Shown piece after piece: positions 12,553 to 29,877 of a stretch of 64,000 bases of DNA. Source of the stretch: Oscillospiraceae bacterium (GTDB taxonomy: Bacteria; Bacillota; Clostridia; Oscillospirales; CAG-272). Under the pieces are notes generated by a model. The model did no database searches. It saw nothing but the letters and a program-made list of their open reading frames with translations, and was not told the DNA's origin. The position numbers and the translations under genes are program-made. Where the stretch lies: contig SVTF01000006.1 in NCBI GenBank assembly GCA_015063905.1, positions 5,120 to 69,119 of the forward strand. Direction: 5' to 3'. The first letter of the stretch is position 1. Every line of letters starts with the position of its first letter.

Positions 12553-13179
12553 TTATTTTTTGCGTCCGATTATTGACCATAAAGCCACAATGAGCTGGCC
12601 GGGAATACCAAGAAGGTAGATCTGCCACAGATTGAAGCCTCCTACAAGTATGGACAAATGCACCGACAAAAGCACAGACCACATAAGTCCCGACACTATA
12701 AGGTAATTTCTGCGGCGGTTGTGCCAAATTGAGTTGAACACCAGCCAAACTATCATGGAAGCCACTATCGCATAGCCGAAAATCAGAAAATTGGCATTGG
12801 TGCGGTTGAGTGAAGCGTCAAAAATAACAAACAAGAGAGTAGCTATCACCCAAACAAGCAAAACGCTCATTCCTGTCACTACGCGATGCATGCGATGCTT
12901 CTTGGCGTCCCTGGCATATTGGGGAACCTCCGCGTCTGCTAAAGCCTGCTCCGTTTTTGGCTCCGGGTGATCCTCGGTTATAAGATAATCCACTGTGACG
13001 TCAAATATATCCGCAATTTCCTTAAGCACAACGATATCGGGAACGGATTCTCCTCTTTCCCATTTCGACACAGCCTTGTCCGAATAGTTCAGCTTTTCGG
13101 CAAGCTCTATTTGCGTCATACCGCTCCGCTTTCGAAGCATTACGATATTTTTTGATATTATAAGCTTTATATCTTCCAT
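12553..13179 (-). CDS. XRE-family HTH regulator with C-terminal transmembrane domain
   Basis: LRKRSGMTQIELAEKLNYSDKAVSKWERGESVPD HTH, then about 4 hydrophobic helices. Confidence 0.88.
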   Translation of the reverse strand: MEDIKLIISKNIVMLRKRSGMTQIELAEKLNYSDKAVSKWERGESVPDIVVLKEIADIFDVTVDYLITEDHPEPKTEQALADAEVPQYARDAKKHRMHRVVTGMSVLLVWVIATLLFVIFDASLNRTNANFLIFGYAIVASMIVWLVFNSIWHNRRRNYLIVSGLMWSVLLSVHLSILVGGFNLWQIYLLGIPGQLIVALWSIIGRKK

Positions 13180-13197
13180 CTATGTATCTCCATGGCA

Positions 13198-13629
13198 TCA
13201 TTCCGCGCGTTTTCGGGCAAACAAGAATTTTAGCCTAAGCTTTAGAGAAACGAACGGGTGCGCGGCGCATATCATTACACAATATGCGCGATATGACAGT
13301 TTATTCATATCTACCCTTTTATCTTTTCTGTAAAACTCCACAAGTTTCCCAAGTATATCCGCGTCGGTTATGCCGAATTCCTTTTTGATGCAATTATCGC
13401 CTCGTATAACGTACGAATCGGGCAATACCTTTATCACTCGGTGAAGCACGTAGCTATCTCCCCTGCGATAAAGCGCGACGTCGTATTTTTTCAGCCGTTC
13501 TTTTGCTGGCTTTATAACTATAGTATCGCGCCTATCACGAAGCATGGGAACCATGCTGACACCCGACGTTGTACTGACGTAAACGCCTTGCTCACCAAGT
13601 ATTTTTTCTATATTTGCTATGTCACTCAT
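13198..13629 (-). CDS. S24/S26 family peptidase (Ser-His type, no N-terminal membrane anchor)
   Basis: GVSMVPML (catalytic Ser box), VLHRVI (His), RGDN box; ATGA overlap with the PqqD gene. Confidence 0.85.
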   Translation of the reverse strand: MSDIANIEKILGEQGVYVSTTSGVSMVPMLRDRRDTIVIKPAKERLKKYDVALYRRGDSYVLHRVIKVLPDSYVIRGDNCIKKEFGITDADILGKLVEFYRKDKRVDMNKLSYRAYCVMICAAHPFVSLKLRLKFLFARKRAE

Positions 13630-13892
13630 ATCTCGATCAGTCCGTTTTCAAGGAACATGTCTATGCTCTTTTGAACGTCTGTCTCTATCAGTTCGCGCTC
13701 CGCGTTATACTGCTCGAGCATAGCGTCAACGATCTGTTCCTTGGAATACCCTTTACCTATATAGCTCCAGATCTTGGCGGCAGATTCATTCAACTGTACC
13801 ATGCCGCGAAAATCACGGCTTGCCGCGCCAACGGCTATAATTACGTTATTGCCCATTACCTCGCGCAAAACGAATCCTTCTTTGATCTTCAA
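13626..13892 (-). CDS. PqqD family protein / RiPP recognition element (RRE)
   Basis: (M)KIKEGFVLREVMGNNVIIAVG...LNESAAKIW...IVDAMLEQY...DVQKSIDMFLENGLI; TTG start at 13892 with an AAAGGAG RBS. Confidence 0.88.
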   Translation of the reverse strand: MKIKEGFVLREVMGNNVIIAVGAASRDFRGMVQLNESAAKIWSYIGKGYSKEQIVDAMLEQYNAERELIETDVQKSIDMFLENGLIEI

Positions 13893-13917
13893 GATAAACT
13901 CTCCTTTAAGATTTTTA

Positions 13918-15696
13918 TCAGTCAAGCGCCTCAAACTCTTCAAGCGCGGACTTGAAGGACGCCATGCAAGAATCGAACGCATCCATGCATGTAAGGTCAA
14001 CGCCCGCAAGCTTCAAAAGCTCAACGGGGCTATCCGAACCGCCAGAGGACAAGAACTTGAAGTAATCGTCAACTGCAGTCTGACCCTCGTTATATATGCG
14101 CTCCGCGATAGAAACTGCGGAAATAATACCCGTTGCATACTTATAAACGTAGAACGCGCGATAGAAGTGAGGAATTCTTGCCCACTCGTAAGCGATCTCG
14201 TCGTCGGAAACCACGCTTCTGCCGTAGTATTTCTTGTTAAGATCGTGATAGGCCTTGCAAAGTGCTTCCTTGGTGAGAGGCTGTCCCTTTTCACACATGT
14301 CGTGTGCGATGTATTCAAACTCTGCAAACTGAGTCTGGCGGAACAGAGTACCCTTGAGCATATCCATATAATAGGAAAGCAGATACTTCTTGAGCTTTTC
14401 GTCCTCGGTGGTCTTCATAAGATGCTTTAGCAAAAGCACTTCGTTGACCGTACTTGCGACCTCTGCAACAAAGATCTTATAGTCTGCCTTCTCCTGGGGC
14501 TGATTTCTCTCGGAGAAGTAGGAGTGCATAGCGTGACCAAGCTCGTGAGCCAAGGTGAACACGTCGCCCGTGGTCTTCTGATAGTTGAGCAGTACGTAGG
14601 GGTGCTTGAGGCCGTAAACGGAGTTAGAATACGCTCCGCTTCTCTTGCCCGCGGTCTCCTCAACGTCGATCCAGCCGTTATCGTGAGCCTCCTGGAGCAA
14701 CTCCTGGTATCTTTCGCCGAGGGGCGAAAGTCCCTCTTTTACAAGCTTGAATGCGTCCTCATAGTCCAGCTTAAGCTCCGCATCTTCAACGGGAGATACG
14801 TAAACGTCATACATGTGCATGGACTTGAGTCCCATGAGCTTTTTCTTATCTCTGTAATAGCGATGAAGAAGCGGGAGTCCTTTCTTTACACTGCGGAGAA
14901 GATTCTTATATACCTTTACGTCAACGTCCTCGCGAGCCATGCTCATCTCAAGCGCAGAGCCGTATTTTCTCGTACGAGCAAGGAACACGTCCTTTTCAAC
15001 GTTACCCGAATAAGCCGCGGTTATGGTGTTGATAAGACCGATATACGCCTTATAGTACGCGCGGAACGCCTCGCGTCTTACCTTGCGGTCGGGATGGTGG
15101 AGCAATACTCCGTACATACCGTGAGTTACCTGAACCTTCTCGCCGTCCACCTTGATGGTGGGATAGGGGAAGTCTGCGTTGTCGATCATGCCGAATATCT
15201 TCTGGAAACCGCCGAAAATGGTTCCTTCCTGTGAAAGCATAGCCTCGATCTCCTTGGAGAGAACGTGTGGCTTGCTCTTGATGGTCTGGCGGATGGTGTA
15301 ATCGTAGTCGGCAAATCTCTCATCCTTCATAAGTGACTCAAGATACTCTGTAGGAAGTGCGGTAAGCTCAGGATTTACAAAGGATACCGCGCCCGCAAAC
15401 TGCATCCAGATAAGCTCAACGCGGGAATCAAGCGCCATAGCGTCACCGTTTCTCGTATCCTCGTCGTGCCACATAGACGCATAGACTGCCAGATGGCTGA
15501 GCTTATAAGAAACCTTGTTTATCGCTTCAAGACATTCAAGAAGCGTGTCGGGATCTGAAAGCTTGCCCTCGTACTTTGAAAAGTCAAGCATGCCTTCAAG
15601 CTCCTCATATGTTTTATTCCATTCGTCAACTGTCTCAAAAATGTCCGAGAGTCTCCATTTGAGATTTTCGGGAACGTCACATCTGTTTTTTGCCAT
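13918..15696 (-). CDS. pepF: Oligoendopeptidase F (M3B)
   Basis: WRLSDIF, KRSGAYS, TLAHELGHAMH (HExxH), FVAEVAS, WARIPHFY, FYVYKYATG. Confidence 0.95.
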   Translation of the reverse strand: MAKNRCDVPENLKWRLSDIFETVDEWNKTYEELEGMLDFSKYEGKLSDPDTLLECLEAINKVSYKLSHLAVYASMWHDEDTRNGDAMALDSRVELIWMQFAGAVSFVNPELTALPTEYLESLMKDERFADYDYTIRQTIKSKPHVLSKEIEAMLSQEGTIFGGFQKIFGMIDNADFPYPTIKVDGEKVQVTHGMYGVLLHHPDRKVRREAFRAYYKAYIGLINTITAAYSGNVEKDVFLARTRKYGSALEMSMAREDVDVKVYKNLLRSVKKGLPLLHRYYRDKKKLMGLKSMHMYDVYVSPVEDAELKLDYEDAFKLVKEGLSPLGERYQELLQEAHDNGWIDVEETAGKRSGAYSNSVYGLKHPYVLLNYQKTTGDVFTLAHELGHAMHSYFSERNQPQEKADYKIFVAEVASTVNEVLLLKHLMKTTEDEKLKKYLLSYYMDMLKGTLFRQTQFAEFEYIAHDMCEKGQPLTKEALCKAYHDLNKKYYGRSVVSDDEIAYEWARIPHFYRAFYVYKYATGIISAVSIAERIYNEGQTAVDDYFKFLSSGGSDSPVELLKLAGVDLTCMDAFDSCMASFKSALEEFEALD

Positions 15697-15749
15697 TTTT
15701 TATGTCCTCCGTTATTGATTTCTATCCATATATTAAACATATATAGCTA

Positions 15750-15778
15750 ATTATAACATTTTCGCCCGCTTTTTGCAA
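15750..15778 (-). promoter_or_regulatory. Sigma-A promoter of the pepF-pqqD-S26-XRE operon
   Basis: TTGCAA-N17-TATAAT with extended TG on the minus strand. Confidence 0.65.
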
Positions 15779-15838
15779 TAGAAAACGCCCAAATTTCCAA
15801 AAAATCAAATGACATAAGGGTTTTTGGCACCAAAACTA

Positions 15839-15867
15839 TTGACGAATCAGCCCTTATCTGCTATAAT
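15839..15867 (+). promoter_or_regulatory. Sigma-A promoter of asnA
   Basis: TTGACG-N17-TATAAT with extended TG. Confidence 0.7.
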
Positions 15868-15904
15868 TTATCTATTGAATTACAATTGACGTGCGGAGGC
15901 AAAC

Positions 15905-16915
15905 ATGAAAAAGCAGAGCTATATTCCCGCAGGCTACAAGCCCCCACTTGACGCGTACGACACTCAGCGCGCCATAGCCTTTATTAAAAACACCTTTCAG
16001 GACGAGTTTTCAAAGGTGCTTAATCTTAAAAGAGTATCCGCTCCCCTGTTTGTAAGCGAGCAGAGCGGTCTTAACGATAACCTGAGCGGAGTCGAGCGCC
16101 CCGTTTCCTTTGACGTGCCCGCGATCGGTCTTGACGCGCAGGTCGTTCATTCCTTGGCAAAATGGAAGCGCCTTGCTCTCAAACGCTACGGATTCAGCAT
16201 TGGAAACGGTCTTTATACCGATATGAACGCGATACGCCGTGACGAAGAGCTTGATAACGTCCACTCGATATACGTTGACCAATGGGACTGGGAAAAGGTC
16301 ATTACCGAGGACAACAGGAACCTCGACTACCTTATGCTCATAGTTCGTTCCATAGTCAAAGCCATATGCAACACCTGCGATCTGCTCCACGTGCGCTATC
16401 CTCAGCTCAAGACCAAGCTTTGTCCCGACGTTGCTTTTATTACCACGCAGGAGCTTGAGGATATGTATCCCACGCTAACCCCCTCCGAGCGTGAAAATGA
16501 GTTCCTGCGCCAAAATAAGACTGCGTTTATTATGCAGATCGGCGGAGTGCTCCGTTCGGGCAAGCCGCATGACAGCCGCGCTCCCGACTATGACGATTGG
16601 CAGCTAAACGGCGATATTTTCTTTTGGGATGACGTGCTTTCGCGCGCGCTTGAGATATCTTCGATGGGAATACGCGTTGACGCCAAATCTCTCGACCGTC
16701 AGTTAACGATCTCGTGCTGCGATGACCGCCGCGCGCTTCCCTTCCATCAGATGCTGCTCCATGACGAGCTGCCCCTGACCATCGGCGGAGGTATCGGACA
16801 GAGTCGCCTCTGTATGCTTATGATGGGCTGCGCACACATAGGCGAGGTTCAATCCAGCCTTTGGGATGCGGAAACGGTACGCGTTTGCGAGCAAAACAAC
16901 GTTCCACTGCTTTGA
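15905..16915 (+). CDS. asnA: Aspartate-ammonia ligase
   Basis: VVHSLAKWKR, HSIYVDQWDWE, HDSRAPDYDDW, TIGGGIGQSRL. Confidence 0.96.
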   Translation: MKKQSYIPAGYKPPLDAYDTQRAIAFIKNTFQDEFSKVLNLKRVSAPLFVSEQSGLNDNLSGVERPVSFDVPAIGLDAQVVHSLAKWKRLALKRYGFSIGNGLYTDMNAIRRDEELDNVHSIYVDQWDWEKVITEDNRNLDYLMLIVRSIVKAICNTCDLLHVRYPQLKTKLCPDVAFITTQELEDMYPTLTPSERENEFLRQNKTAFIMQIGGVLRSGKPHDSRAPDYDDWQLNGDIFFWDDVLSRALEISSMGIRVDAKSLDRQLTISCCDDRRALPFHQMLLHDELPLTIGGGIGQSRLCMLMMGCAHIGEVQSSLWDAETVRVCEQNNVPLL

Positions 16916-16935
16916 TAAGATAATCATTAAAAAAC

Positions 16936-16965
16936 ACTCCCGAGTACCTTTCGGCACTCGGGAGT
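16936..16965. terminator. Bidirectional terminator between asnA and peptide 1
   Basis: ACTCCCGAGT...ACTCGGGAGT inverted repeat with an A tract on the left. Confidence 0.7.
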
Positions 16966-16978
16966 ATTCTATTGTCGG

Positions 16979-17104
16979 TCAAGCACCAACTATAGGTCCT
17001 TCCCACGAGATCGTATCCTCGCTAAACGTAATTATATCGTTTTCAACGATGGTAACGATAATCTCGGGAGCTATATATTCCTTTTTTACATTATCATTTT
17101 TCAT
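16979..17104 (-). CDS. 41-aa RiPP-like precursor peptide 1 (MKNDNVKKEYIAPEIIVTIVENDIITFSEDTISWEGPIVGA)
   Basis: AAGGAG RBS 9 nt before ATG 17104; YxxP...T-x-S leader; paralog at 23222-23347 has only synonymous changes over the last 29 codons. Confidence 0.85.
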   Translation of the reverse strand: MKNDNVKKEYIAPEIIVTIVENDIITFSEDTISWEGPIVGA

Positions 17105-17136: not shown

Positions 17137-20100
17137 TCACTCTGCGGCAAATATAGACTGCGTGCTGGTACATTCAAATACATCGCCCGCATAGAGTTGC
17201 TCCATATAGAAGGGCTCAATGTATATCTTAACGCGTCTTGCATCTGCGCCAAAATAGTCGTAGCTGAAACTACCCCATCCCGTCGTCGGAACTCTGTCAT
17301 TTATCTTATAATCGGACATTTCAACGCGAACGTTGATCTTACCTCTGAACTCTGCCCAGGTTACATTCGACGTATCAAACGTAATACCCGAAGCATTCTG
17401 CGCCTGAAAGTCGGGGATCGTAGTCCATGCAAGATTGGTGTTTCTATGCTCGGTAATAATACCCGTTCCAAACTTGATAGCCAACATAGACGTTGCAGCG
17501 CGCTGAATGAATATATCGTCGGTCGCTGTAAACTTGTTGTGAATTACAAGACCGTCCTTGGTCCAAGTATCCGTTTTGACTCGGTCAAATACCTTTTCGT
17601 CAGTCGTGGTGTTTGCGCTGCATCTATTAAGATAGGACTCAACGACTGCCTGAACGCTGTCACAGCCCTTAAGCGCGTAATCCTTGCTCATATCAAGCTC
17701 CACGCCGTCAACCAGTATCTTAATACTCGTCATATACTCGTCACCGTGCCAGCCGCCGATAAAGTCCGCAGCGGCAGTTCCCTGACCGTAATTCAGCTTT
17801 TCCTGAATTGCTGCTTCTAATTCACACGCTCCCTGAACGGTGGTGTAAAGGAGGTTGAGGTCAGAGTCACAGATGTCAATCATAGATATTTTCCAGGAAT
17901 CAAATTTGGTCGTGTTGTCAACTATACGCTTGAACTCGTATCTTGTGTACTTATCAACGCCGGGCACATTGGAGCGAACGTATATATACATATGCTCGCC
18001 TGTCTTCTGATAGATAACCTTCTCAGCATTGTCGCCCACGGTATCTATAACGCCCTCAGAGTTAAGGTTCTTGTCAAAGGTATTGGATTTCCAATCTGTG
18101 TAAATTACGTTGTCATCACCAACCACAGTCGCTACCTCATCCCAGTTATCGCAAATTGCGAAATAAGCTATGTCAAGCCTCTCGTTGCCAGAGCATTTTT
18201 CGCCACTCTGATCTATCAGCATACCAACACAAACGTTGGATACAGCCGTCTGGTTTGCCGCGTAATTAGCCAAGCCGAGCTTTTCGATGTCAACAACGTA
18301 CACTACCCATTCATCAGAAATAGCCGCGGTAGGTCTTGAGTCGCCTGTAGTGTATGATGCAACACCCTCGTTATCGTTGTCACCGTTAGCGAGGAACCGA
18401 AGCTCATCGATATCGTGCGTACGAACCTTGATAACGAAGTACTTACCTGTGCCACCCTTGATGGTATCACCGAGATCTATAGGATCATTATCGCTACGCT
18501 TTCCGTTTACAGAGAATCCGCGCACAGGAGTAATGCTTCCGTTCGTGAACTCGAAAGAAGCACCCGTTCCCATCCTGATGCTTGAATAGATGAAGCCTTC
18601 CTCATCCTGCATAAGCGTTCCAACGGGCTCACATTTTGTGTTTCCGCCGTAGCCTGCTGCCCAGTTGTTATAGAACTGACCGGGAGCGGAATAATAGTTT
18701 ACAGAATCGTCAACGGTATTGGTATATACCTTCTTGCAATCCTTGCAGGTATAGGTTACAGTACCGTCTGCCGCAGATGTGAACTCGGGGCTGCAGAGTA
18801 CGCAAGAGCCATCAGAGTTCTTCTCAAAGAGAGCGGCATTGTTTGCCCATGCGGTGTAGGAAACGGTCTCACCCTCTCCAACGACCTTCTCTACCTCTTC
18901 CCAAGAGTCGCAAACTGCGAAGTAGGAAATGTCAACAGATACATTTGTTGTGTTAATATCACCCGAACCGGGTCCATACATAAAGCCCGCAGCGAGCTTT
19001 GTTCTGGTCGTGTCACCCGCTTCACCGTACGTAGTATTAATTCCCGTAAGAGTTAAAAGATCCTTGATATTAACGACGTAGGTTACCCATTCGCCGTTCT
19101 GTAAATCGGTCCTCAGTCCGAGATAGTTTCCACTAGGCTCTACCTCAGCTACGCTGTCGGACGCAGAAGATAGTCTCCATGCAAGTGCAGTTACGTTATT
19201 AGTTCTCATCTTAAATACGAGATAATTACCCGTACCACCGTTAAGGCTAACAAAGTATCCCTGATTAGGCTTTACATGTCCGCCGGTTGTAAGAGGCATT
19301 GTTCCGCCTCTGGCGGTGATACTAAACGTCTGATAAAGGACTCCGTTGTCATTTTTGATCTTTGTGTCAAGTGATGTAGCATACGCGTTCTTGTGAGCAA
19401 ACTGACCGGGAGCGGTAATATAGTTGATCGAGCTATCATAGGTGAGCTCATCATATACTGTTTTGCATACGGTACATGCATAAGTGTATTTATCACCGTC
19501 TTTGCTTACGGCAATTGCACATTCATCGCAAGTGCCATCGGGATTAAGGGTTGCCGCAGAGCCGCCTACCCAGGTCTCAACAAAAGTGACCTTTTCCTTG
19601 CCAACAACTGCCGCGATCTCATCCCAACCGTCACAAATTGCGAAATAAGCTATGTCGAGATATTCGCCGCTTGAGCCGCCGCCGGGCATACCAAGTCCAA
19701 CCGCAACCTTTGTAGCGGTGCTGTCATTGGCAACGTACTGAGTAGTACCAAATCCCGATATATCTACAACGTAGATGGTCCAATCGGTTGCAGACAGCTC
19801 GGAGGATACCGTTCTGTTGTCCGTCTTGGTAACGTAGTTACCCCAGGTGTTAGTCTGGTTTCCGCCGTCATCGGTGGAGTTAAGATACCAGTGCAGGTTG
19901 GACATTGCGTTTCCTCTGACCTTCAATACGAAGTAGTTACCCGTACCGCCGTTCAAGGTATCACCCGCATCGACCTGATTATGATCATTGTGGAATCCGT
20001 TAATGGACAAGCCTCTCTTAGGAGTTATTGTTCCATTAGTGAATTCAAAGTATGCCGCATTGCCCATCGGAATATGCTGATAGGTAACGCCGTTTTCGGT

Positions 20101-22053
20101 CAAAACGGTTCCCGCAACTGCGCAAGAAGAGCCCTTGCCTGCTGCATTCCAAGAGTTGTACATCTGACCGGGTGCGGAGAAGTAGTTGATATCTGCATCA
20201 AATGCATAGGTATTCTTACAAGAGGGGTTCTTGCAGACGTGGCTATACTTGCCGCCGCTTATGGATGGAACGTAGGCGTGAGTGCTTTCGCACTTACCCG
20301 TAGCGGTTAGCGTACTGTAAGCATTTGTCTCATTCTTCCAATCAACAGCGCTTACAGTCGACTCGGAAACGATGGCATCGATCTCCTCAAAGCTATCGCA
20401 GATTGCAAAGTAAGCGATATCCAAATTAACTGTTCTCGCGTTTGCCCCGCTTCCAAGATAAGCGAATGTCAAACCGAAGGATGCCGCGTTGACGTTAGCC
20501 TGGTTAGCACCGTAAAAACCGCTTGCAAGCTGTTCAATATCAATTACGTATATTTCCCACGTGTCACTCGACATATAGGACTTGTATCCCGAACCGCTGT
20601 AACGCTTGAGGCTGAGGCTGGATATTCCTCTGTCGGCATATCCCGCGCTGTCCGCGAACATAGTAAGATTGACCAATCCCTGGTTGTCGGTGCCCGCAGC
20701 AAGGGTGTAACGGTATTTCAATACTACGTATTTACCGCTTCCGCCGAGTATAGAATCGGCAATAACGTTTCCGTTAGCGTCCTTGATATACTGACGCGCG
20801 CCTTCAGCAGGAACAGTCATTGTCTGAACAACGTTGCTACCGTTTCTGAATTCAAAGCCGTCGCCGTCGGTAATTGTAAGTCTTGTAAACGTAAGGTCAC
20901 CCTCGGTCATAACCGTACCTACGGGAGTACCCGCAAGGGTTTCGCCGTCGGTTCCCTTTAAGTTGACCTGCTGACCGGGCGCGGAATAATAGTTAACACT
21001 GTCACTTACAGCGCCGCTCATAACCTTACCGCAGTAAGAACAGGTTGCAACAGAGGTATTGGCGCCAAGCGTTGTTGCCTCATAGTGCTGACGGTGGTGA
21101 GCGCAATCGGTTCTCGAGGGAACGTTATTAGTACCCGCGGTGTTGAGGTAGTAGTAATACATGGCGTGAGCTATGTCGCGCGTATCGTCACTGGCAGCCA
21201 ATACCTTAAGGCAGTCAAGCACGCTTGTGCTGACAGACACAGCATCCGCGCCGTCAACCTTAGCAACAAGCTCATAGGTTGTCGCGTAATCCGCGGTGCT
21301 TATGTTGCCCACCTTAACGTAATACTCATTGGTGTTTCCAACGCGTATACCGTCGGTCTTGCCTGTACCCGTATAGGTATAGTAAAGACGAATCTGGGTA
21401 TAGCTATCGAGAACAAGCTCATAGCGAGCATTTGTTACGTCGGCATTTTTGATCTCGGGAGTTACCTTAACACCCGTGCCAAGCTCGTATCCCATATTTA
21501 TAACAGGGTTAGTGCCTCTTGAGAAAACACCCTCGTTTTCAACTACGTTATTTGAGATCTGGTCATCAAACTGCTTATGCGCATACGCACCGTAGTTAAG
21601 AATGGATTTGATCGCGCTGTAATAGCTCGAATAATCCGCCTCGGCGTCAGTGTCAAGCACAAGCTCGGCATAATCTCTTACGGAATAAGTTACGGGAGCG
21701 CATGCCGCGACACCCGATCCGTTAACGGGGGTAACCGTAACGTCGCATCCCATCTCTGCCGCCGCGAGAGGAACGTTAAAGTACGTCTTTCCGTCCTTAG
21801 CGGTCACAAGAGGAACCGTTATCGAATGAGGATCGACGTTGTCATCGGAAATCACCGCCTGAGCGCTGGTAACGCTATCATCGGTTATGGTATAGTAAAA
21901 TCTTAAGTTGATATTACCGTCAGTCGCGACCTGAATACCGCCAAACGTTGCGCTGGGAGTTGCCATAATAACAAGCACTGCCGACAAAGCAACGATCAAG
22001 GTAAGCAGGGCGGCGATAAATATCACCTTTTGGGGTCTCATGACTCTTTTCAT
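17137..22053 (-). CDS. Giant secreted/surface modular protein 1 (about 1638 aa): signal/anchor helix, shared N-terminal domain, 4 repeat modules, unique C-terminal domain
   Basis: GGAGGAG RBS before MKRVMRPQK; hydrophobic N-terminus; four NY(Y/F/I)(S/T)APGQ...I(A/S)YFA(I/V)CD repeats preceded by Cys/His knuckles. Confidence 0.85.
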   Translation of the reverse strand: MKRVMRPQKVIFIAALLTLIVALSAVLVIMATPSATFGGIQVATDGNINLRFYYTITDDSVTSAQAVISDDNVDPHSITVPLVTAKDGKTYFNVPLAAAEMGCDVTVTPVNGSGVAACAPVTYSVRDYAELVLDTDAEADYSSYYSAIKSILNYGAYAHKQFDDQISNNVVENEGVFSRGTNPVINMGYELGTGVKVTPEIKNADVTNARYELVLDSYTQIRLYYTYTGTGKTDGIRVGNTNEYYVKVGNISTADYATTYELVAKVDGADAVSVSTSVLDCLKVLAASDDTRDIAHAMYYYYLNTAGTNNVPSRTDCAHHRQHYEATTLGANTSVATCSYCGKVMSGAVSDSVNYYSAPGQQVNLKGTDGETLAGTPVGTVMTEGDLTFTRLTITDGDGFEFRNGSNVVQTMTVPAEGARQYIKDANGNVIADSILGGSGKYVVLKYRYTLAAGTDNQGLVNLTMFADSAGYADRGISSLSLKRYSGSGYKSYMSSDTWEIYVIDIEQLASGFYGANQANVNAASFGLTFAYLGSGANARTVNLDIAYFAICDSFEEIDAIVSESTVSAVDWKNETNAYSTLTATGKCESTHAYVPSISGGKYSHVCKNPSCKNTYAFDADINYFSAPGQMYNSWNAAGKGSSCAVAGTVLTENGVTYQHIPMGNAAYFEFTNGTITPKRGLSINGFHNDHNQVDAGDTLNGGTGNYFVLKVRGNAMSNLHWYLNSTDDGGNQTNTWGNYVTKTDNRTVSSELSATDWTIYVVDISGFGTTQYVANDSTATKVAVGLGMPGGGSSGEYLDIAYFAICDGWDEIAAVVGKEKVTFVETWVGGSAATLNPDGTCDECAIAVSKDGDKYTYACTVCKTVYDELTYDSSINYITAPGQFAHKNAYATSLDTKIKNDNGVLYQTFSITARGGTMPLTTGGHVKPNQGYFVSLNGGTGNYLVFKMRTNNVTALAWRLSSASDSVAEVEPSGNYLGLRTDLQNGEWVTYVVNIKDLLTLTGINTTYGEAGDTTRTKLAAGFMYGPGSGDINTTNVSVDISYFAVCDSWEEVEKVVGEGETVSYTAWANNAALFEKNSDGSCVLCSPEFTSAADGTVTYTCKDCKKVYTNTVDDSVNYYSAPGQFYNNWAAGYGGNTKCEPVGTLMQDEEGFIYSSIRMGTGASFEFTNGSITPVRGFSVNGKRSDNDPIDLGDTIKGGTGKYFVIKVRTHDIDELRFLANGDNDNEGVASYTTGDSRPTAAISDEWVVYVVDIEKLGLANYAANQTAVSNVCVGMLIDQSGEKCSGNERLDIAYFAICDNWDEVATVVGDDNVIYTDWKSNTFDKNLNSEGVIDTVGDNAEKVIYQKTGEHMYIYVRSNVPGVDKYTRYEFKRIVDNTTKFDSWKISMIDICDSDLNLLYTTVQGACELEAAIQEKLNYGQGTAAADFIGGWHGDEYMTSIKILVDGVELDMSKDYALKGCDSVQAVVESYLNRCSANTTTDEKVFDRVKTDTWTKDGLVIHNKFTATDDIFIQRAATSMLAIKFGTGIITEHRNTNLAWTTIPDFQAQNASGITFDTSNVTWAEFRGKINVRVEMSDYKINDRVPTTGWGSFSYDYFGADARRVKIYIEPFYMEQLYAGDVFECTSTQSIFAAE

Positions 22054-22198
22054 GTCATATTCTCCTCCTACTATAAAATTTCTTTTCATATTCTATACTA
22101 TATTAGCATTAAATTTAATCGCAGAAAAGGCAAAATACGCCTAAAATATGGTCAAAAACGACAAAAATTAGCCCTCACTCAAACTACGAACTATTTTT

Positions 22199-22226
22199 AT
22201 TATATCACGGCGTATATTTTTTGCAA
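22199..22226 (-). promoter_or_regulatory. Putative sigma-A promoter of giant protein 1
   Basis: TTGCAA-N16-TATAAT with extended TG on the minus strand. Confidence 0.5.
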
Positions 22227-22342
22227 ATTGTGAAAAAAGCATTGATTGGCTCAAAAAATCGCCGATTCGCACAAATCAAAAGCCAATAAATTAGTAAAAT
22301 CCCACAAAAAAACCGTAATTCAAGGCTTTTTGTGGGATTATG

Positions 22343-23062
22343 TTATTTTATCAATTCCTCAAACGAGGTTTTAGCGGCTTCGTTTGAAACGTTACACTCC
22401 AAAAGATAAAAAGGTATATTTTTTGATAGCTTATCAAGCAGATCAAGCGTTAAAAGCCGCGCGCTTGCATCCTTGGGGATATACACCTGCGCCATTATCT
22501 CGGCAAAATACCGCGCGGGATCTATTCTTTGGATAGCGTTAGTCTTTCCGCGTTTCAAAAGGCATATGCCGCCAAGCTCCGCTATCGTATTTCTTTGCAT
22601 ATCCTCTTTGCCCGCCCAAGGGGTCGAGCAAACGCGAGCGCCTCTATCCGACACGTGAATTATCGGCTTGTCGCCGTTTACTATCTTCACTTCATCGGGA
22701 TAGTTTTTCATCAAGAGATCTATATGTGTCGTTTTGCCCGTACCCGACGGCGCGGTGAATATAAACCCTTTTTTGCCGATAGTGACCGCGGCGCCGTGGA
22801 ACACGAAGCGCGAAAATTTTGGCAACCTCTCCGCAATAGCGCGATAAAGACAAAGGCTCTCGCAATAATCCGCGGCATGCGGCGCGTCGTAAGCCGCCAT
22901 TTCGCGCGCTATCTCGTCTTCGTCGGCATAAGCATCGATATCAAAGTCCGCCTTGGGCGGTATTATATAATCATGGCATCTGTGGCGAACGAATTCATAG
23001 CTTGCGTTCATCCTTACAGATAGCTCGGATATTCCAATGTAAAACTGTTTTTTCTCTGACAT
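22343..23062 (-). CDS. HPr-kinase-like / ScmC-like P-loop protein (putative peptide Ser/Thr kinase)
   Basis: FHGAAV, FTAPSGTGKTTH (Walker A), NGDKP, STPWAGKE: pattern of HprK/PEPCK-fold kinases found with PqqD proteins; start at MSEKK with an AGGA RBS. Confidence 0.8.
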   Translation of the reverse strand: MSEKKQFYIGISELSVRMNASYEFVRHRCHDYIIPPKADFDIDAYADEDEIAREMAAYDAPHAADYCESLCLYRAIAERLPKFSRFVFHGAAVTIGKKGFIFTAPSGTGKTTHIDLLMKNYPDEVKIVNGDKPIIHVSDRGARVCSTPWAGKEDMQRNTIAELGGICLLKRGKTNAIQRIDPARYFAEIMAQVYIPKDASARLLTLDLLDKLSKNIPFYLLECNVSNEAAKTSFEELIK

Positions 23063-23178
23063 ATCTTGTCCTATATATAATAAATGAAGATTTTCGCTTT
23101 TCGCCATTGCGGCAAAGCAATAAGATTCTGATACACAACCGCCCGTGTACCTTGCGGCGCACGGGCGTGGTTTTGATC

Positions 23179-23221: not shown

Positions 23222-23347
23222 TTATGCTCCAACGATGGGGCCTTCCCACGAGATTGTATCCTCGCTAAAGGTAATAATATCGTTTTCAACAATCGTCACT
23301 ATAATTTCGGGAGATACATATTCCTGTTTTACGATCTCATTGTTCAT
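23222..23347 (-). CDS. 41-aa RiPP-like precursor peptide 2 (MNNEIVKQEYVSPEIIVTIVENDIITFSEDTISWEGPIVGA)
   Basis: Hand-translated (below the ORF-track cut-off); AAGGAGG RBS; starts 21 nt after the stop of giant protein 2; 35/41 aa identical to peptide 1. Confidence 0.85.
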   Translation of the reverse strand: MNNEIVKQEYVSPEIIVTIVENDIITFSEDTISWEGPIVGA

Positions 23348-23368: not shown

Positions 23369-26300
23369 TTATTGTGCTGCTTCTGCGTCAACAAGTGCCT
23401 GAATGTCAGCGGCAGTCTTTGTAACGTCAACGGTGCTATCGCTCCACTTAGAAGCGTAAGTTACATCCGTATCCGTTCCAACAACAGTCTGAACCTCAGT
23501 CCAGTTGTCAACGATAGCGAAGTAAGCAAGATTGATGTAGTCATCCTCCAGCACACCTGTTCTGCCTTCGCCGCCCTTAATACCGTTAGCAACCTTAAGA
23601 CCTACGGACATTGTAGACATATCGGCATTGCTAAGATCATACCAAAGCTTATTGTTGCTTGTTCTTGTCAAGCTATCAAGCTCAACAACAACAGTTATCC
23701 ACTTGCCTACCATATCATCGGTTATGGTTCTCACGTGACTTGCAATATCGAAGAACCTGTCGGTATTGGGGTTACCTGCCGAAGTTTCGGTGGGTGCTGA
23801 GTACCAGTCGAGCTCGGAAGCACCGTCATAAAGACCAAGCTTCAACCTTCCAAGGTTCTTACTTCCTATGTACATCTTCATAACGATCATCTTTCCGGGG
23901 CCGCCCGAAATAGTATCGTCAGCAATATGCATCTTTGTGGTGTTGAAATTATTGTGCAATCTCAAAGAACCGGATTCCTTGAAGTATATGTGAGTATATC
24001 CGTTCTCACCGTCGCTTACAAGCGTATTGGTCGTGTTATAATGAGTTATCACCTGACCGGGTGCGCTATAGTAGTTGATGCTTGCATCCATAACGGTAGT
24101 TTTGTAACCGGTGGTCTCATCATTGAAGTTGGTAGTGTAGATTATCTCTTCACCACCGCCAACAACTGCCTTGACCTCTTCCCAGCTATCAACGATAGCG
24201 AGATATGCCACGTCAACTCTTGCGTCCGCTACAGCTTCCATTTCGTTTGAACGAATAATGAATCTGATCTTTGTAGCCGAAGGATCAACGTAACCGGAAA
24301 CATCAATTACATAAGTAACGAACTCTTCGGAAAGAATATCAGCGGTATTCATTCTGAACTCTCCACTGTTCCAAGCAATCTTCTTGCCCGTATCAGTCTC
24401 GAAGCCCATTCCAACCTTGATATTGTTTATGTTACGCATCTTAAGTACTATGTACTTGCCCATTCCGTCGATGCTGTCATCAACAGTGGTCTCGGTGTGA
24501 GTTCCGGCTGCTACGCTTCCGTTTGCCATAAAGAAGGATGCGCCCTGGTAGACGTTGACCTGCGTATAAACCATATCTTCTTCAGCAGAGATATAGCTCA
24601 GCGCATTCTTTTTACCCTCGAGAGAGTTAGATACGCTACAAGATCCGCCCAAGGAAGGCATATTAGCGGTTCCCCAGTTGTTTACGATCTGTCCGGGAGC
24701 GGAGAAGTAGTTAACGCCTGCGGGGCTAACGACCTCATATGTCTCACCGCAATTTGCATTTCTGCAAGTGTAGGTGTAAACTGTATCGCCGTTTCCGTTT
24801 GTTGTAATAACGGGAGCACTGAGTCTATGCTCGGCGCAGGAACCGTCCGCGTTACGATATTCATCGTTATCAGCGTTACTCCAGTTAGCCGCGTACATAA
24901 TCTGAGTATTATCCGTTCCAACAACCTTGGACACTTCTGTCCAGTCATCAACGATAGCGAAATATGCAAGGTCTACATAGTCGGTTTCCTTTGCACCTGC
25001 GCCGTTCTGTATCTTAAGACCAACGGATATGTTGGTGAGATCATCATTGGTGTAGTCATAGAACGTGTAGCTTCTCTGGTTGAGATTCCATGTTCCGTCC
25101 CCGTTCTGTGTGGGAGGATTAGCGCTATCAAAGTACGTATCCGTATAGGTCATCGTACTAAGGTCAACAACGTAGATCACCCACTCGCCTATAGGCTGTA
25201 CGGTAAGTCCTCTTACATGAGAGGCGCCGTCAAACAGAATGTCTGTGTGAGGACCGCCGAACGTATATCCGGTAACAACGCCATCGGTCTTAACCGTAGT
25301 GGTATAGAGAGGCATGGTATCGGCTCCGTCATAGAGACCTATCTTGAGCTGACCAAGACTTGTGCCGCCAAGACGAACCTTCATAACAGCGTATCTACCT
25401 GCGCCCTTGATGGGGTCATCAGCAACTGCCATAGTATTTGTGCTGCTCTGATTATGAAGTCTTACCGAGCCGCTCTTTGAGAAGTTGATTCTTGTATAAG
25501 CAAATCCGGCATCGACGTCATCTATAACAAGCGAAGGAGTCGAGTTATAATGCTGGATTGCCTGACCGGGTGCGGAGTAGTAGTTGATACTATCGTCTAT
25601 TACATGCGTTTCCTTTACTGTTCCGCATATATCACACTCTATACTATACTCAGTTGCTGTAGAAACAGTAACGTAAGTGTGGTCTCCCGTACATTCGCCG
25701 CCAACAATAGTTGTGGGAGTTCCGGATGCGAAATCAGTAAAGTAATTGACCTCTTCGGTCTCACCAACTACGTTGATTATTTCATCCCAATCGGAGCAGA
25801 TAGCAAAGTATGCCACGTCAACGTAAGCACCCGCAGTGTTACCGCCCTTGGTCTGAATAGATGCAGCTACCTTTTGTACAGTCTCGTCAACCTTAAAGGG
25901 AGCAGCGTTATACTTCGAAATGTCTATAACGTAAGTTATCCAAACATCTGTAGCAATGTTTACTCTCGTCTTCATATTAGACTCGGCCTTAAGCGTTCCT
26001 GTTCCAAGACCTATACTCATCTGGTTTACGTTATGCAAACGAGCCTTCAATACGATGTATCTGCCCATACCGCCGTTAATGGTATCCTCGGGCAAAGTGC
26101 TCTGGCTGGAAGGAACAGACGTGCCGTTGGTGAACTCAAACTGGCTTCCAACGTTGAGGTAAACTCTGGTAAACGTCTGCTTTTCGATAGCGTCGTAATC
26201 GTTAACACCGGTAACGCCATAACCAGCTCCATATCCCTGTCCCTCTGAGTTGTTACCTGTCATAGGCTTATAGTAAGTTCCCCAGAAGTTGTGATACTGA

Positions 26301-29300
26301 CCGGGTGCGGAGTAATAGTTTACGTCAGCGGAAACAGTTCTGCTGTCGGTAAGTCCGCAAACCTCATTGGAGCACTTATAGGTGTAGGTGTTGCCGTCCT
26401 TTGTAAGAACCATTCTATGCTCAATACAAGTACCGTCTGAATTACGGACCATATCGTTGCTTAAAGAATTCCAGGTTGTGAAAAGAACCTCTTCGCCTTC
26501 GCCTACAACGGATTCTATTGCGGTCCAGTCATCGCAGATAGCAAAGTATGCAACGTCCAGATACCAAGGCTTTTCGGGATCGGTAATGTAGGCGTTTTCA
26601 TAGCCCGATGCGCTATTGTTGGTCTGCAACCACATTGTTGCGGAGGTGTTGCTTCCAACTGTATAATAATTCTTGCCACCCGCCTGTGAAAGATCTATAA
26701 CGTACGTTGTCCACTCGGAGAAATCCGCTTGTCTGTACATTGTATCTGCAACAGCATCGTTAGCAGCATTGGATCCGTTGACTACTCCAAGCGATATACG
26801 CTTGACCATGGGAGATCTGAGTCTGAGAACGGCATAACGTCCCGACTTAGCCACGGTGTTGGAATAAGGACTGCTTGTCGTCGTGTCTGCCTTAAGATAC
26901 ATAGAAGCGCCCGTATGTCCAAAGCCGTATCTTGCGTAGAATCCGTCGCCGTCATTCATAAGAATGGTATAACCATTGCTCTTAACAAACGCGGATTGCG
27001 TGTAGCTCGATGCAACCCACTTAGGCGTTGCGAGACCGGGAGCCGCATAGAAGTTGACTTGACCTTCTGCTGTGCCGAGGGTAGGTGTTGTTACACTGTG
27101 AACCACGTCGCCGCAGGCTTCACACTTGTAGTTTACAGTATTGCCGCTTATAGAGATCGCGTGGTTGTTAAGCACACAGTCAACGGCAGTCTTGTTCTTA
27201 TCATGGTTGACAGTATCCCAGTTTGTATAGAGATAGGAAGTATCCTTGCCGATCACGTCAATGATCTCTGCGCAAGTGTCAACAACCGCAAAGTACGCAA
27301 TATCAACGTATTCGCCAAATCTAACGCCGCCGGCACCATCACCGTACATGAATCCGTATACCGCCTTGGTAACGCTGGTATCCTGGGACTTGTATGTATT
27401 GATAGAAAGCTTTGCGAGATCTATAACGTAGATCGTCCACGCATTCTTCTCGAGAATGCTGTTTTCACGTCTTGCGACGTAGCTTCCGGGATTGGGGAGC
27501 GTACCGCCAGCATCCGCGGTACCCAGTCTCAATGACAAGCCTTGCTTGGCATTCGTTCTCATTTTAAGAATGAGGAATCTACCCGAACCGCCGTTAAGGG
27601 TAACGTGAGCAGTTCCGTCAATATGTCCTGCGCTGGTAAGCGGAATTGTTGCGCCACCATTGTTAATATTTATTCTCTGGAAGAGAGTTCCGGTAGCTTC
27701 GTCGTAAGATACACCCTGAGAAGATCCCGACCAAGCGTGGTTCACTTTTACTGTGCCGGGAGCTGTGTAAAGGTTGATCTCCTCGGTAAACACCTTGTTC
27801 TCTGTGAGAGTTGCCGTTGTAGTAGCTCCGCACTCGATACAGGTCTTTGTAGGCGCATCGTAGAAGTGAACGCCATCGGGGCATGTGGTGTTATCTCCGT
27901 CCGTTGTAAGATATGCATCGTAAGATCCGTTCTTCCAGTTTGTGCGGAGGAACGTTTCGTCGCCAACGATACTATATACCTCTTTCATGTCGTCACAGAT
28001 AGCAAAGTATGCAATATCTGTGTAACCGGGGCGGTAATCGGGGCCGTTAACGTCGCCCGCTACGGCTCCGTTGGTAGGGACAGAGTTTACGCCTGAGAAT
28101 GCCATTGTTGCGTCGATCATATCGATAGAAGCAAGATCCTTGCCGGCAAATGCCGCGTTGCCCATCTGAGCTACGTCGATAACGTAGATAGTCCAACCGT
28201 TGAAGACCTTCTGATTAGCGTAGATGTCACTATAATTCTCTCCGTTTCTCGAAGTCAGCGAGTTTGCTGTTGCTCCGGGTGCCGTAAATCCGAGATTGAA
28301 GATGTTGTGAAGATCTTTGTAAGTCCATTCGCCGTTAGAGCCAAGAGTTCCAACGTTAGCAGCTCCGGCTCTCATCTTGATAACTATGTAGTTACCCATG
28401 CCGCCGTTAAGCTTGTAGTCAGGAGTTTTGCTATGAGTCTGGGAGTTTCCTATGGTAGCCTGAGTTGCAGTACCGTTGGTGAACTCAAACTGACCGGACT
28501 GCCATGTGTAAATACGGCTATAGGTCGTTCCATCCTCATCGGTCTCATAAGACTGAATGAAGTAGTCCTTATTCAAAGAGCTCGTTGTTCCGCTGGTTGC
28601 CCAGTAGTTGTTGAACTGACCGGGAGCGGAATAATAGTTAATCTCGTCGTGTACAACACTGTTTACCTTGAATCCGCAGAACGTACATACAGGCTGAGAA
28701 TACTCAGATCCGTATTCAACGGGCTCGTAGTGCATAAAGTGCTTACACGTTGCCTGGCTTACTGCGGGGCCGACGTTAGCGTTGGTCCAGTAGTAGTAGT
28801 TGTACATAGCGAGCGCAAGCTCGTATGTGTCAGCATCTGCCTTGAGAGCAGACAAGCAATTGAGTACGCTTGCTCCGGAAACGTCGATAGCCTTAACACC
28901 GTTAACGTTTACAACGAGGTCAGCAGAGTGATCCGTTGCAAAGCCGGTTGTGGATATGTAGTTTCCGCCAACGTACCATCTGCCGTCCTCACCCTGCTTA
29001 CCGGAGTGAGACTCGGTGGTTCCGTTCCAAACGTAAGAGAGACGAAGCTCAACGCTGTCCTCAAGCACGATCTCGATCTTGGGATCGGAGATGAGGCTTG
29101 CAAACTCGTCAACCACTGTAGCAGTAGGCTTGTTGTTTGCGGAAAGCTTAGAGTCCATACCGATTATCGGGTTGGTGTCTCTCTTGTAGATACCGTCATT
29201 CACTACGACCGTGTTGATGAATGACATACCTTGTGACTTAAAGTACTCATTTGCGTACTGTCCGTAGTTAAGAACCGCTTTAATAGCTCTTGCGTCTCTT

Positions 29301-29737
29301 TCGGTAGCACTACCGGAATTGAGCAGAAGCTCAGCGTAGCTTCTTACGGAGAAGGTTTTTGTGTCACACGCGTTAAGTCCGCCGGATGTCTTGGGAGTAA
29401 CCTTAACGTCGTAACCCATTTCTGCCGCAGCAAGACGTACTCTCGCATAGTACATTCCTCTCGTCTCGTCATACACGAGGTCCACAGTTTCCGTGCGTTC
29501 CTCAGAGTATCCATCCATGACGACAACGTCTGCGGTTTTTACGTTCTCAGCGTTTTCGGGGGTAATCTCGTACCAGAAGAGCATGTTGATCTTACCGTCC
29601 GTGGTTACCTGAACACCCTTGAACGTAGCCGTGTCAGTAGCCAAAATGATAACAACTGCCGCGATCGCGATCAGAGCCGCAAGCACGATAGCCGTGATTA
29701 TCACTCTTGGCTTTTTGAAAATCGTTTTCGTGTTCAT
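23369..29737 (-). CDS. Giant secreted/surface modular protein 2 (2122 aa): signal/anchor helix, shared N-terminal domain, 7 repeat modules
   Basis: AAGGAG RBS; hydrophobic N-terminus; seven N(Y/L/F)(Y/F)xAPG...AY(F/L)A(I/V) repeats; paralog of 17137-22053. Confidence 0.88.
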   Translation of the reverse strand: MNTKTIFKKPRVIITAIVLAALIAIAAVVIILATDTATFKGVQVTTDGKINMLFWYEITPENAENVKTADVVVMDGYSEERTETVDLVYDETRGMYYARVRLAAAEMGYDVKVTPKTSGGLNACDTKTFSVRSYAELLLNSGSATERDARAIKAVLNYGQYANEYFKSQGMSFINTVVVNDGIYKRDTNPIIGMDSKLSANNKPTATVVDEFASLISDPKIEIVLEDSVELRLSYVWNGTTESHSGKQGEDGRWYVGGNYISTTGFATDHSADLVVNVNGVKAIDVSGASVLNCLSALKADADTYELALAMYNYYYWTNANVGPAVSQATCKHFMHYEPVEYGSEYSQPVCTFCGFKVNSVVHDEINYYSAPGQFNNYWATSGTTSSLNKDYFIQSYETDEDGTTYSRIYTWQSGQFEFTNGTATQATIGNSQTHSKTPDYKLNGGMGNYIVIKMRAGAANVGTLGSNGEWTYKDLHNIFNLGFTAPGATANSLTSRNGENYSDIYANQKVFNGWTIYVIDVAQMGNAAFAGKDLASIDMIDATMAFSGVNSVPTNGAVAGDVNGPDYRPGYTDIAYFAICDDMKEVYSIVGDETFLRTNWKNGSYDAYLTTDGDNTTCPDGVHFYDAPTKTCIECGATTTATLTENKVFTEEINLYTAPGTVKVNHAWSGSSQGVSYDEATGTLFQRININNGGATIPLTSAGHIDGTAHVTLNGGSGRFLILKMRTNAKQGLSLRLGTADAGGTLPNPGSYVARRENSILEKNAWTIYVIDLAKLSINTYKSQDTSVTKAVYGFMYGDGAGGVRFGEYVDIAYFAVVDTCAEIIDVIGKDTSYLYTNWDTVNHDKNKTAVDCVLNNHAISISGNTVNYKCEACGDVVHSVTTPTLGTAEGQVNFYAAPGLATPKWVASSYTQSAFVKSNGYTILMNDGDGFYARYGFGHTGASMYLKADTTTSSPYSNTVAKSGRYAVLRLRSPMVKRISLGVVNGSNAANDAVADTMYRQADFSEWTTYVIDLSQAGGKNYYTVGSNTSATMWLQTNNSASGYENAYITDPEKPWYLDVAYFAICDDWTAIESVVGEGEEVLFTTWNSLSNDMVRNSDGTCIEHRMVLTKDGNTYTYKCSNEVCGLTDSRTVSADVNYYSAPGQYHNFWGTYYKPMTGNNSEGQGYGAGYGVTGVNDYDAIEKQTFTRVYLNVGSQFEFTNGTSVPSSQSTLPEDTINGGMGRYIVLKARLHNVNQMSIGLGTGTLKAESNMKTRVNIATDVWITYVIDISKYNAAPFKVDETVQKVAASIQTKGGNTAGAYVDVAYFAICSDWDEIINVVGETEEVNYFTDFASGTPTTIVGGECTGDHTYVTVSTATEYSIECDICGTVKETHVIDDSINYYSAPGQAIQHYNSTPSLVIDDVDAGFAYTRINFSKSGSVRLHNQSSTNTMAVADDPIKGAGRYAVMKVRLGGTSLGQLKIGLYDGADTMPLYTTTVKTDGVVTGYTFGGPHTDILFDGASHVRGLTVQPIGEWVIYVVDLSTMTYTDTYFDSANPPTQNGDGTWNLNQRSYTFYDYTNDDLTNISVGLKIQNGAGAKETDYVDLAYFAIVDDWTEVSKVVGTDNTQIMYAANWSNADNDEYRNADGSCAEHRLSAPVITTNGNGDTVYTYTCRNANCGETYEVVSPAGVNYFSAPGQIVNNWGTANMPSLGGSCSVSNSLEGKKNALSYISAEEDMVYTQVNVYQGASFFMANGSVAAGTHTETTVDDSIDGMGKYIVLKMRNINNIKVGMGFETDTGKKIAWNSGEFRMNTADILSEEFVTYVIDVSGYVDPSATKIRFIIRSNEMEAVADARVDVAYLAIVDSWEEVKAVVGGGEEIIYTTNFNDETTGYKTTVMDASINYYSAPGQVITHYNTTNTLVSDGENGYTHIYFKESGSLRLHNNFNTTKMHIADDTISGGPGKMIVMKMYIGSKNLGRLKLGLYDGASELDWYSAPTETSAGNPNTDRFFDIASHVRTITDDMVGKWITVVVELDSLTRTSNNKLWYDLSNADMSTMSVGLKVANGIKGGEGRTGVLEDDYINLAYFAIVDNWTEVQTVVGTDTDVTYASKWSDSTVDVTKTAADIQALVDAEAAQ

Positions 29738-29848
29738 GATTTTCTCCTTGTAATATTTTTATTGCGGGGGCAAATAAATACAAATAAAATTTCACCGTGT
29801 CTCTCGGTCGCATGGGACACCTCGAGATTTTATTTCTATAGTATATAT

Positions 29849-29877
29849 ATTATAGCACCCACCCCCTCCTTTGTCAA
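29849..29877 (-). promoter_or_regulatory. Perfect-consensus sigma-A promoter of giant protein 2
   Basis: TTGACA-N17-TATAAT with extended TG on the minus strand. Confidence 0.8.

Follow-up and report, generated by a model that had tools for sequence, protein, structure and literature searches.

A probable split LPP-type RiPP system in an Oscillospiraceae bacterium, with precursor genes placed directly behind giant secreted proteins

The subject of this analysis is a 64,000-nucleotide (nt) stretch of DNA (the window) from an Oscillospiraceae bacterium (assembly GCA_015063905.1, contig SVTF01000006.1), and within it a region at positions 12553-29877 that probably constitutes a split member of the LPP (linear polyphosphorylated peptide) family of ribosomally synthesised peptides with post-translational modifications (RiPPs). 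Two genes of 41 amino acids (aa) are the candidate lppA-type precursors. Each lies behind the gene for a giant secreted repeat protein, and the region also encodes a kinase, a RiPP recognition element (RRE) and a peptidase that resemble LPP enzymes. All named system elements are on the minus strand, asnA excepted, and those that carry the argument are listed here (ORF, open reading frame; AF2, AlphaFold2).

13198-13629, minus strand: lppS-like soluble Ser/His signal-peptidase-I-like (S24/S26-like) leader peptidase, 143 aa (fold, sequence)
13626-13892, minus strand: lppB-like discrete RRE, PqqD fold, 88 aa (PF05402, 7.2e-14)
16979-17104, minus strand: lppA-like precursor 1, 41 aa (ORF, AAGGAG ribosome-binding site, selection)
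17137-22089, minus strand: giant secreted repeat protein 1, 1650 aa (ORF); domain X at residues 44-320
22343-23107, minus strand: lppK-like HprK-fold P-loop kinase, 254 aa (homologues, AF2 fold)
23222-23347, minus strand: lppA-like precursor 2, 41 aa (ORF, AGGAGG ribosome-binding site, leader profile match, selection)
23369-29737, minus strand: giant secreted repeat protein 2, 2122 aa (ORF); domain X at residues 34-330

Precursor 2 starts 21 nt behind the stop codon of giant 2 and is separated from the kinase gene by 114 nt, while precursor 1 starts 32 nt behind giant 1 and is followed by a stem-loop and T-run. The RRE gene begins with a TTG codon preceded by the ribosome-binding site AAAGGAGAG, and its stop codon overlaps the peptidase ATG by 4 nt. 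Gene callers place the kinase start 15 codons later, giving a protein of 239 aa. A first-pass annotation of this DNA had described two units of giant protein plus 41-aa peptide with a P-loop gene between them, and a downstream pepF-PqqD/RRE-S26-XRE(TM) string (TM, transmembrane) interrupted by asnA only; every one of these elements is present. In the assembly, 88.8% complete with 1.8 Mb on 42 contigs, these two are the only such peptides, alongside one kinase, one peptidase and one PqqD above the Pfam cut-off; the genome-wide search for further peptides advised at that stage yielded none. The kinase, the RRE-peptidase pair and an NTP-transferase are mutually unlinked in this genome.

The LPP family, with genes lppA-K-B-S-D-N, was described in Paenibacillus alginolyticus DSM5050 (Popov et al., Nat Commun 2026, PMC13381572) in work that set out from a SipW-like signal peptidase of archaeal type, which occurs in lasso-like clusters of Bacilli. 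According to the main text of that paper, lppA encodes precursors of 35-200 aa whose C-termini vary and whose N-terminal motif is YxxPxVLxHQxIxFETxxS; the other genes encode an HprK-like kinase (lppK), a discrete RRE (lppB), a SpI-like peptidase with catalytic S29, H68 and D93 (lppS), an MsbA-like exporter (lppD) and an NTP-transferase (lppN). Expression in B. subtilis gave the precursor and a 45-aa core bearing one to four phosphates on core Ser3 (PMC13381572). Deletion of lppK left no phosphorylation and deletion of lppS no processing, and cleavage required LppB. The authors state that the final product and biological role of LPP are unknown; they report the Bacilli clusters in capsule loci and about one third of the SpI-containing clusters linked to lasso genes. 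Our literature searches found the system in this paper only. Its main text uses none of the words Clostridia, secreted and surface, and its supplements may list Clostridial members.

The region shares with LPP a SipW-like Ser/His peptidase adjoining a discrete PqqD RRE, an HprK-like kinase and, elsewhere in the genome, an NTP_transf_5-type transferase, and neither system has a cyclase or the transglutaminase-like B2 protease. The 41-aa precursors fall within the LPP range of 35-200 aa and likewise combine an N-terminal YxxP...S with variable C-termini. Both carry Y10xxP13 and S28, and the Y10-to-S28 spacing of 18 equals that of the published LPP logo. By analogy, Y10xxP13 is the predicted RRE-binding motif, S28 the predicted counterpart of the conserved Ser, and residues ~26-41 the predicted core.

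The two precursors are identical over their last 30 residues. They differ by 14 synonymous codon changes (one of them in the stop codon) and six nonsynonymous ones, all six within the first 11 codons; the last 30 codons thus hold 13 synonymous and no nonsynonymous differences, plus the different stop codon. Their 60-nt flanks are merely 30-37% identical and cannot be aligned. The predominance of synonymous differences, together with the unalignable flanks, argues that the peptides are conserved coding genes and not a recent copy, and the codon pattern points to real coding genes under purifying selection.

Small ORFs with the same N-terminus stand beside the cassette in three relatives. A profile built from 26 leaders has the consensus KKxYxxPx6FxxEDIIxTS, with P and D invariant among the 26 family members, S at least 90% conserved and the C-termini variable. 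This profile found matches (E<=0.01) in 52 of 68 kinase-positive genomes and in 2 of 60 kinase-negative genomes; with the 22 genomes that supplied profile rows left aside, 30 of 46 kinase-positive genomes were still matched. These tallies are given as counts, without a statistical test, because related genomes are not independent. The kinase-negative set comprised 20 listed genomes with no match and 40 with kinase matches over the C-terminal half only, and one of the two matched control genomes (G118) carries such a C-terminal-half match (6.6e-14). Many genomes hold several dispersed precursor copies, with up to 15 leader-profile matches (G186). Searched against the PDB, the leader profile did not recover the LppA leader chain; it gave a weak match to the TbiA-alpha leader (E 1.4), the rest being chance.

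Single-sequence searches of the PDB with the kinase and the peptidase returned nothing useful, and profiles and folds were needed to place both proteins. The kinase has 1165 database homologues bearing the precomputed family PF27840, of which the literature searched held no mention. Its AF2 model (pLDDT 91.6) retrieved HprK/P structures as all ten best Foldseek matches in the PDB (best E 3.7e-7), followed by PEPCK. Against Pfam it matched no Hpr_kinase C-terminal family and gave weak P-loop matches only, and its orthologues show weak ScmC and HprK_rel_B matches at sequence level. The kinase resembles canonical HPr kinase/phosphorylase at the level of fold only.

Many genomes of the class also hold a second family of ORFs, ~300 aa long, that align with the kinase over its C-terminal half (E 1e-18 to 1e-27), in most of these genomes as a single such match. 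Such ORFs were considered as true HprK, and one was checked (L097, G125:C1:4280700-4282400; ORF 518-1414, minus strand): it has no Pfam family and weak matches to ScmC and HprK_rel_B/A, by which it looks like an HprK-related paralogue and not canonical HprK. The argument that the kinase matches true HprK was therefore dropped, and genomes with such matches only were counted as kinase-negative.

The peptidase matches sigpep_I_arch below cut-off (2.5e-4), and S25, H63 and D78 are invariant in 12 orthologues. Its Ser-His spacing is 38 versus 39 in LppS, a comparison made by published residue numbers only. The best PDB sequence matches of its profile are SEC11A/C (E 0.15-0.2), and its AF2 model (pLDDT 90.6) matches the SpsB, SipA and LexA folds. 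With SipW, the archaeal/ER-type signal peptidase of B. subtilis that PMC13381572 names as an LppS homologue, it shares the Ser/His signal peptidase I fold and the motifs SM.P, HR[VI] and GDN. Unlike SipW it is 143 aa long and has no N-terminal membrane anchor, and we infer by analogy that it acts with the RRE on a cytoplasmic precursor and not on Sec signal peptides. The RRE looks lasso-type by sequence: its profile (nine orthologues) matches TbiB1 (3.8e-10), TfuB1 (3.3e-9), PbaB1 (9.5e-7) and LppB (7.4e-6) in the PDB, and its best NCBIfam match is lasso_PqqD_Bac, below cut-off.

A kinase match is present in 148 of 399 scored genomes in a sample from the same class, from which 67 kinase-positive genomes were picked by hand (match over most of the query, ORFs of ~230-290 aa). 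The peptidase was found in 63 of these 67. At 20 kinase-centred loci the peptidase is adjacent in 11, with a detectable PqqD between kinase and peptidase in nine and the two side by side with the RRE undetected in two. In some related cassettes an ABC exporter is also present, as are one or two genes of the NTP_transf_5 type. The nearest kinase orthologues are solitary beside housekeeping genes, as here, with the PqqD-peptidase pair elsewhere, sometimes accompanied by exporter and transferase. A split layout with all parts kept recurs, for example in G308, G185, G085, G052 and G250.

The only NTP_transf_5 gene of the genome lies on contig C19 (393 aa, 151 bits), unlinked, with ftsQ, murG and ftsW on one side and a prophage (P22-like portal, large terminase) on the other. 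It is homologous to the cassette-linked copies in relatives (1e-15 to 3e-33).

G000:C19:87541-88248; L005 11167-12348, minus strand: NTP_transf_5 gene, far from the other LPP genes

The giant proteins both begin with an N-terminal TM segment or signal anchor, followed by ~250-aa units that match each other at staggered offsets. Giant 1 is a paralogue of giant 2, with 31% identity over ~1340 residues. The units have no Pfam match, and self-BLAST showed nothing. For residues 340-860 of giant 1, ESM Atlas features hint at carbohydrate-binding-module-like clusters (0.83, under the 0.9 mark). The genome also encodes other giant repeat-bearing lipoproteins without peptides, and pairing in this genome is therefore limited to the two paralogues. 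Four such lipoprotein genes stand in tandem at G000:C3:32458-55700 (1423-1957 aa, the last cut by the contig end) with a peptide gene behind none of them, and they share ~250-aa repeat units with giants 1 and 2.

Domain X (~290 aa, residues 34-330 of giant 2) is recurrent: 100 representatives were found at E<=1e-3, and 91 matches could be placed, 37 of them N-terminal, 33 C-terminal and 21 internal. Within the 68 genomes there are 34 domain X matches in 13 genomes, and a precursor follows 13 of the 34 (cross-read by eye). Strings running from a domain-X gene through a precursor to kinase and/or peptidase occur in G398, G087 (twice), G014, G177 and G223. Two precursors follow a single domain-X gene in G252:C42 (L059, 779-946 and 1112-1228), and two successive gene-plus-precursor units with nearly identical cores are found in G186:C40 (L078). 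At G278:C81:3379-4662 a single 735-aa ORF contains domain X and, immediately ahead of it, a stretch with weak likeness to Transglut_core3 (20.1 bits, below cut-off).

We examined 44 precursors outside this genome, and 36 of them start at most 40 nt behind an ORF on the same strand (median gap 15 nt). Two of the 44 (L074, L075) were not resolved by the script; by eye both abut an upstream ORF. Among the upstream ORFs that are complete, 31 of 35 have a signal-peptide-like N-terminus versus 134 of 414 background ORFs, where the call is a crude hydropathy rule and the background consists of other ORFs of at least 190 aa at the same loci. A contig end truncates two of the four upstream ORFs that are not signal-peptide-like (L042, L055), and the exceptions include a GHMP kinase (L072) and ABC-2 permeases (L077, L088). 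The upstream proteins belong to several families, and peptide cores are alike within each family, a likeness that may be plain co-inheritance. At L042 (G187:C1, 10917-11333, minus strand) precursor and kinase are separated by a small protein with an SLH domain (1.5e-24) and by two small uncharacterised ORFs; the SLH protein is another cell-surface link.

Residues 34-330 of giant 2 were co-folded with precursor 2 using our own alignments. Three runs gave ipSAE values of 0.83, 0.77 and 0.80 (median 0.80), and the best of three controls gave 0.00. The runs share at least 69% of contacts, with a partner pLDDT of at least 50. Of 80 solved complexes 58 reach the mark applied, as do 2 of 110 mismatched pairs, counts that are only rough here as own alignments were used. 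The confident interface comprises peptide residues 24-41, that is the predicted core, and the leader is not involved; the tightest pairs join peptide residues 33-39 to chain-1 residues 7-13 (residues 40-46 of giant 2). The co-fold supports binding of the core to domain X without proving it. The first-pass annotation had suggested that the peptide acts with the co-transcribed surface protein and had advised looking at adjacency in relatives and co-folding the peptide with the N-domain of the giant; the conserved adjacency and the controlled co-fold now lend that suggestion support.

The remaining features of the region are as follows.

12521-12546, minus strand (12546-12521): terminator directly beyond XRE(TM), the last gene of its string
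12553-13179, minus strand: XRE-family helix-turn-helix protein with a hydrophobic C-terminal half (TM tail) (HTH_3, 1.2e-14)
13918-15696, minus strand: pepF, oligoendopeptidase F (TIGR00181, 612 bits)
15750-15778, minus strand (15778-15750): promoter-like site opening the pepF-PqqD-peptidase-XRE(TM) string (consensus match)
15905-16915, plus strand: asnA (full-length TIGR00669 match)
22199-22227, minus strand (22227-22199): promoter-like site upstream of giant 1 (10/12 consensus positions)
29849-29877, minus strand (29877-29849): promoter-like site upstream of giant 2 (12/12, sigma-70-like, extended -10; consensus match only)

The end coordinate first given for the region, 29877, is the edge of the promoter-like match upstream of giant 2. 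The pepF-RRE-peptidase-XRE(TM) string is tight here, as first described, and pepF and XRE(TM) are rejected as conserved system parts: they stand beside the cassette in none of 20 kinase-centred and none of 12 peptidase-centred related loci, with one weak XRE match ~5.6 kb from the kinase (L038). Use of asnA as a substitute cyclase is unsupported, the gene being a full-length TIGR00669 match on the opposite strand. The 588-aa gene upstream of giant 2, considered as an lppD exporter, is RsmF. Elsewhere in the window, a family 8 glycosyltransferase, an acyltransferase and a CrtO-like acyltransferase are encoded on the plus strand at 9346-11927, in convergent orientation to the XRE end of the locus, and look like a possible envelope or glycolipid context.

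By homology with the Paenibacillus system, the PqqD-fold RRE (13626-13892) would take up the Y10xxP13 leader as an extra beta strand, the HprK-fold kinase (22343-23107) would place one or more phosphates on Ser28, and the Ser/His peptidase (13198-13629) would remove the leader a few residues before Ser28, the RRE presenting the substrate. The analysis itself shows the gene content, the folds, the conserved residues, the tie of cassette to peptide family and the lack of cyclase and B2; binding, phosphorylation and cleavage in this organism, with their exact sites, are carried over by homology. The expected product would be a linear acidic phosphopeptide of ~14-16 residues with, as in LPP, a phosphorylated Ser just past the cleavage site. 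No macrolactam would be formed because there is no cyclase, and the unlinked NTP_transf_5 gene may decorate the product further. Each precursor would be transcribed behind its giant secreted protein, and the mature part would probably dock on domain X of that protein. The annotators had envisaged such a route, with the RRE passing a peptide with a YxxP leader to a protease of the S26 type and to an HprK-like kinase to give a linear phosphopeptide. Their reading is supported: PMC13381572 showed this route by experiment for the homologous LPP system, and the gene set here fits that family. Their remark that no experimental characterisation was known is overtaken by the same work in Paenibacillus.

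We tentatively propose that in this Clostridia-type branch the LPP peptides serve the secreted proteins encoded directly upstream as dedicated partners and are not free antibiotics, the short acidic core, freed of its leader and (poly)phosphorylated on the Ser near its N-terminus, docking on domain X by strand addition. A core docked in this way could act as a non-covalently attached handle on the surface protein, polyanionic or glycan-bearing, with a use in anchoring, assembly or charge.

Several observations weigh against assigning the region to the LPP family. The LPP genes of Paenibacillus, a member of another class, form one operon, whereas here the genes lie scattered in three places and their coordinated function is assumed. 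LPP has the MsbA-like exporter LppD, and relatives carry an exporter in the cassette; here no lppD-type orthologue was found in an assembly that is just 88.8% complete, the best ABC matches being generic (24-29% identical), while genuine exporters of the cassette give 1e-147 or better against one another. Neither kinase nor peptidase reaches any curated cut-off of Pfam or NCBIfam. Between P and S the leader consensus departs from the logo in the paper, lacking both HQ and FET, and the cleavage site in the precursors cannot be placed confidently. TbiB1, TfuB1 and PbaB1 outscore LppB in the RRE profile search, and placement of the RRE in the LppB clade is therefore not established.

It is also a possible, if tentative, reading that the region encodes an ordinary LPP-type RiPP with an antimicrobial, signalling or capsule-related role, the position behind secreted-protein genes reflecting shared regulation or a favoured insertion site with no action on the upstream protein. 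Such a role would sit well with the published account, in which LPP function is not known and the Bacilli clusters occupy capsule loci (PMC13381572). It would also suit the low count of domain-X genes followed by a peptide (13 of 34 in the 68 genomes), the few precursors behind cytoplasmic or membrane proteins (the GHMP kinase of L072, the ABC-2 permeases of L077 and L088), and a core-partner co-variation that may be simple co-inheritance. Unlike the capsule-locus precursors, however, those of this branch are dispersed and nearly all stand directly behind secreted-protein genes, and the close same-strand spacing of 36 of 44 precursors and the excess of signal-peptide-like upstream ORFs (31 of 35 versus 134 of 414) count against this reading. 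Against it stand, too, the co-fold, which seats the core and not the leader on domain X (ipSAE 0.80 versus 0.00), and the occurrence of domain-X gene, precursor and kinase or peptidase in one string in six genomes.

A conventional paeninodin-type lasso system, whose cyclase and B2 protease would lie in the unassembled 11% of the genome, is highly improbable. Paeninodin-type lassos of Bacillota do share a discrete RRE for [Y/W]xxP, an HprK-like kinase and NTP-transferase tailoring with this region (PMC7533575 and PMC13381572), and the incompleteness of the assembly (88.8%), the lasso-like YxxP leader, the lasso_PqqD_Bac match of the RRE and the published link of about one third of SpI-containing clusters to lasso genes (PMC13381572) would all fit. 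In contrast to such lassos, no macrolactam cyclase or transglutaminase-like B2 is found here, and the leader peptidase is of clan SF (Ser/His); a dedicated SpI-like peptidase already takes this role. Asn_synthase gave three matches of ~21 bits in the 88.8%-complete genome, namely TilS, ThiI and MnmA, and Transglut_core3 none at E<=1, as a genome-wide search advised by the first-pass annotation was meant to establish. Its statement that the window lacks a cyclase, a B2 protease, a nucleotidyltransferase and an exporter accordingly extends to the whole of this assembly for cyclase and B2, and is qualified by the NTP_transf_5 gene on contig C19. Among the relatives, Transglut_core3 is above cut-off in none of the 67 kinase-positive genomes, 60 of them at least 90% complete, and the Pfam-scanned ORFs of related cassettes include no cyclase, the ~560-aa genes being ABC exporters. 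A decaying or orphaned system, with genes scattered by rearrangement, the exporter lost and the peptides no longer matured, is unlikely as well: the unlinked kinase, RRE-peptidase pair and NTP-transferase and the missing exporter orthologue are what decay would leave, but every ORF is intact, the putative catalytic residues are conserved, the last 30 precursor codons show the 13 synonymous and no nonsynonymous differences noted above with a different stop codon, and genomes that keep all parts (G308, G185, G085, G052, G250) have the same split layout.

What looks new relative to the published LPP family is the split, dispersed architecture, the different leader, and the conserved position of precursor genes behind those for secreted proteins, coupled with a predicted contact between core and domain. 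The branch is widespread, with a kinase orthologue in ~67 of 399 genomes of a class-wide sample (hand selection), and nearly all its precursors are linked to a gene for a secreted protein, a pattern that suggests for LPP a role concrete enough to test. Should the adjacency prove meaningless, what is left would be a published RiPP family extended, as a matter of routine, to another class. If docking of the core on domain X is true, it would be the first function for the LPP family, with a RiPP acting as a surface-protein subunit. If the core does bind the protein encoded upstream, LPPs would act as modular adaptors, charged post-translationally, of cell-surface proteins in bacteria so far seen only in animal faecal metagenomes, and the mining and interpretation of orphan precursors would change.

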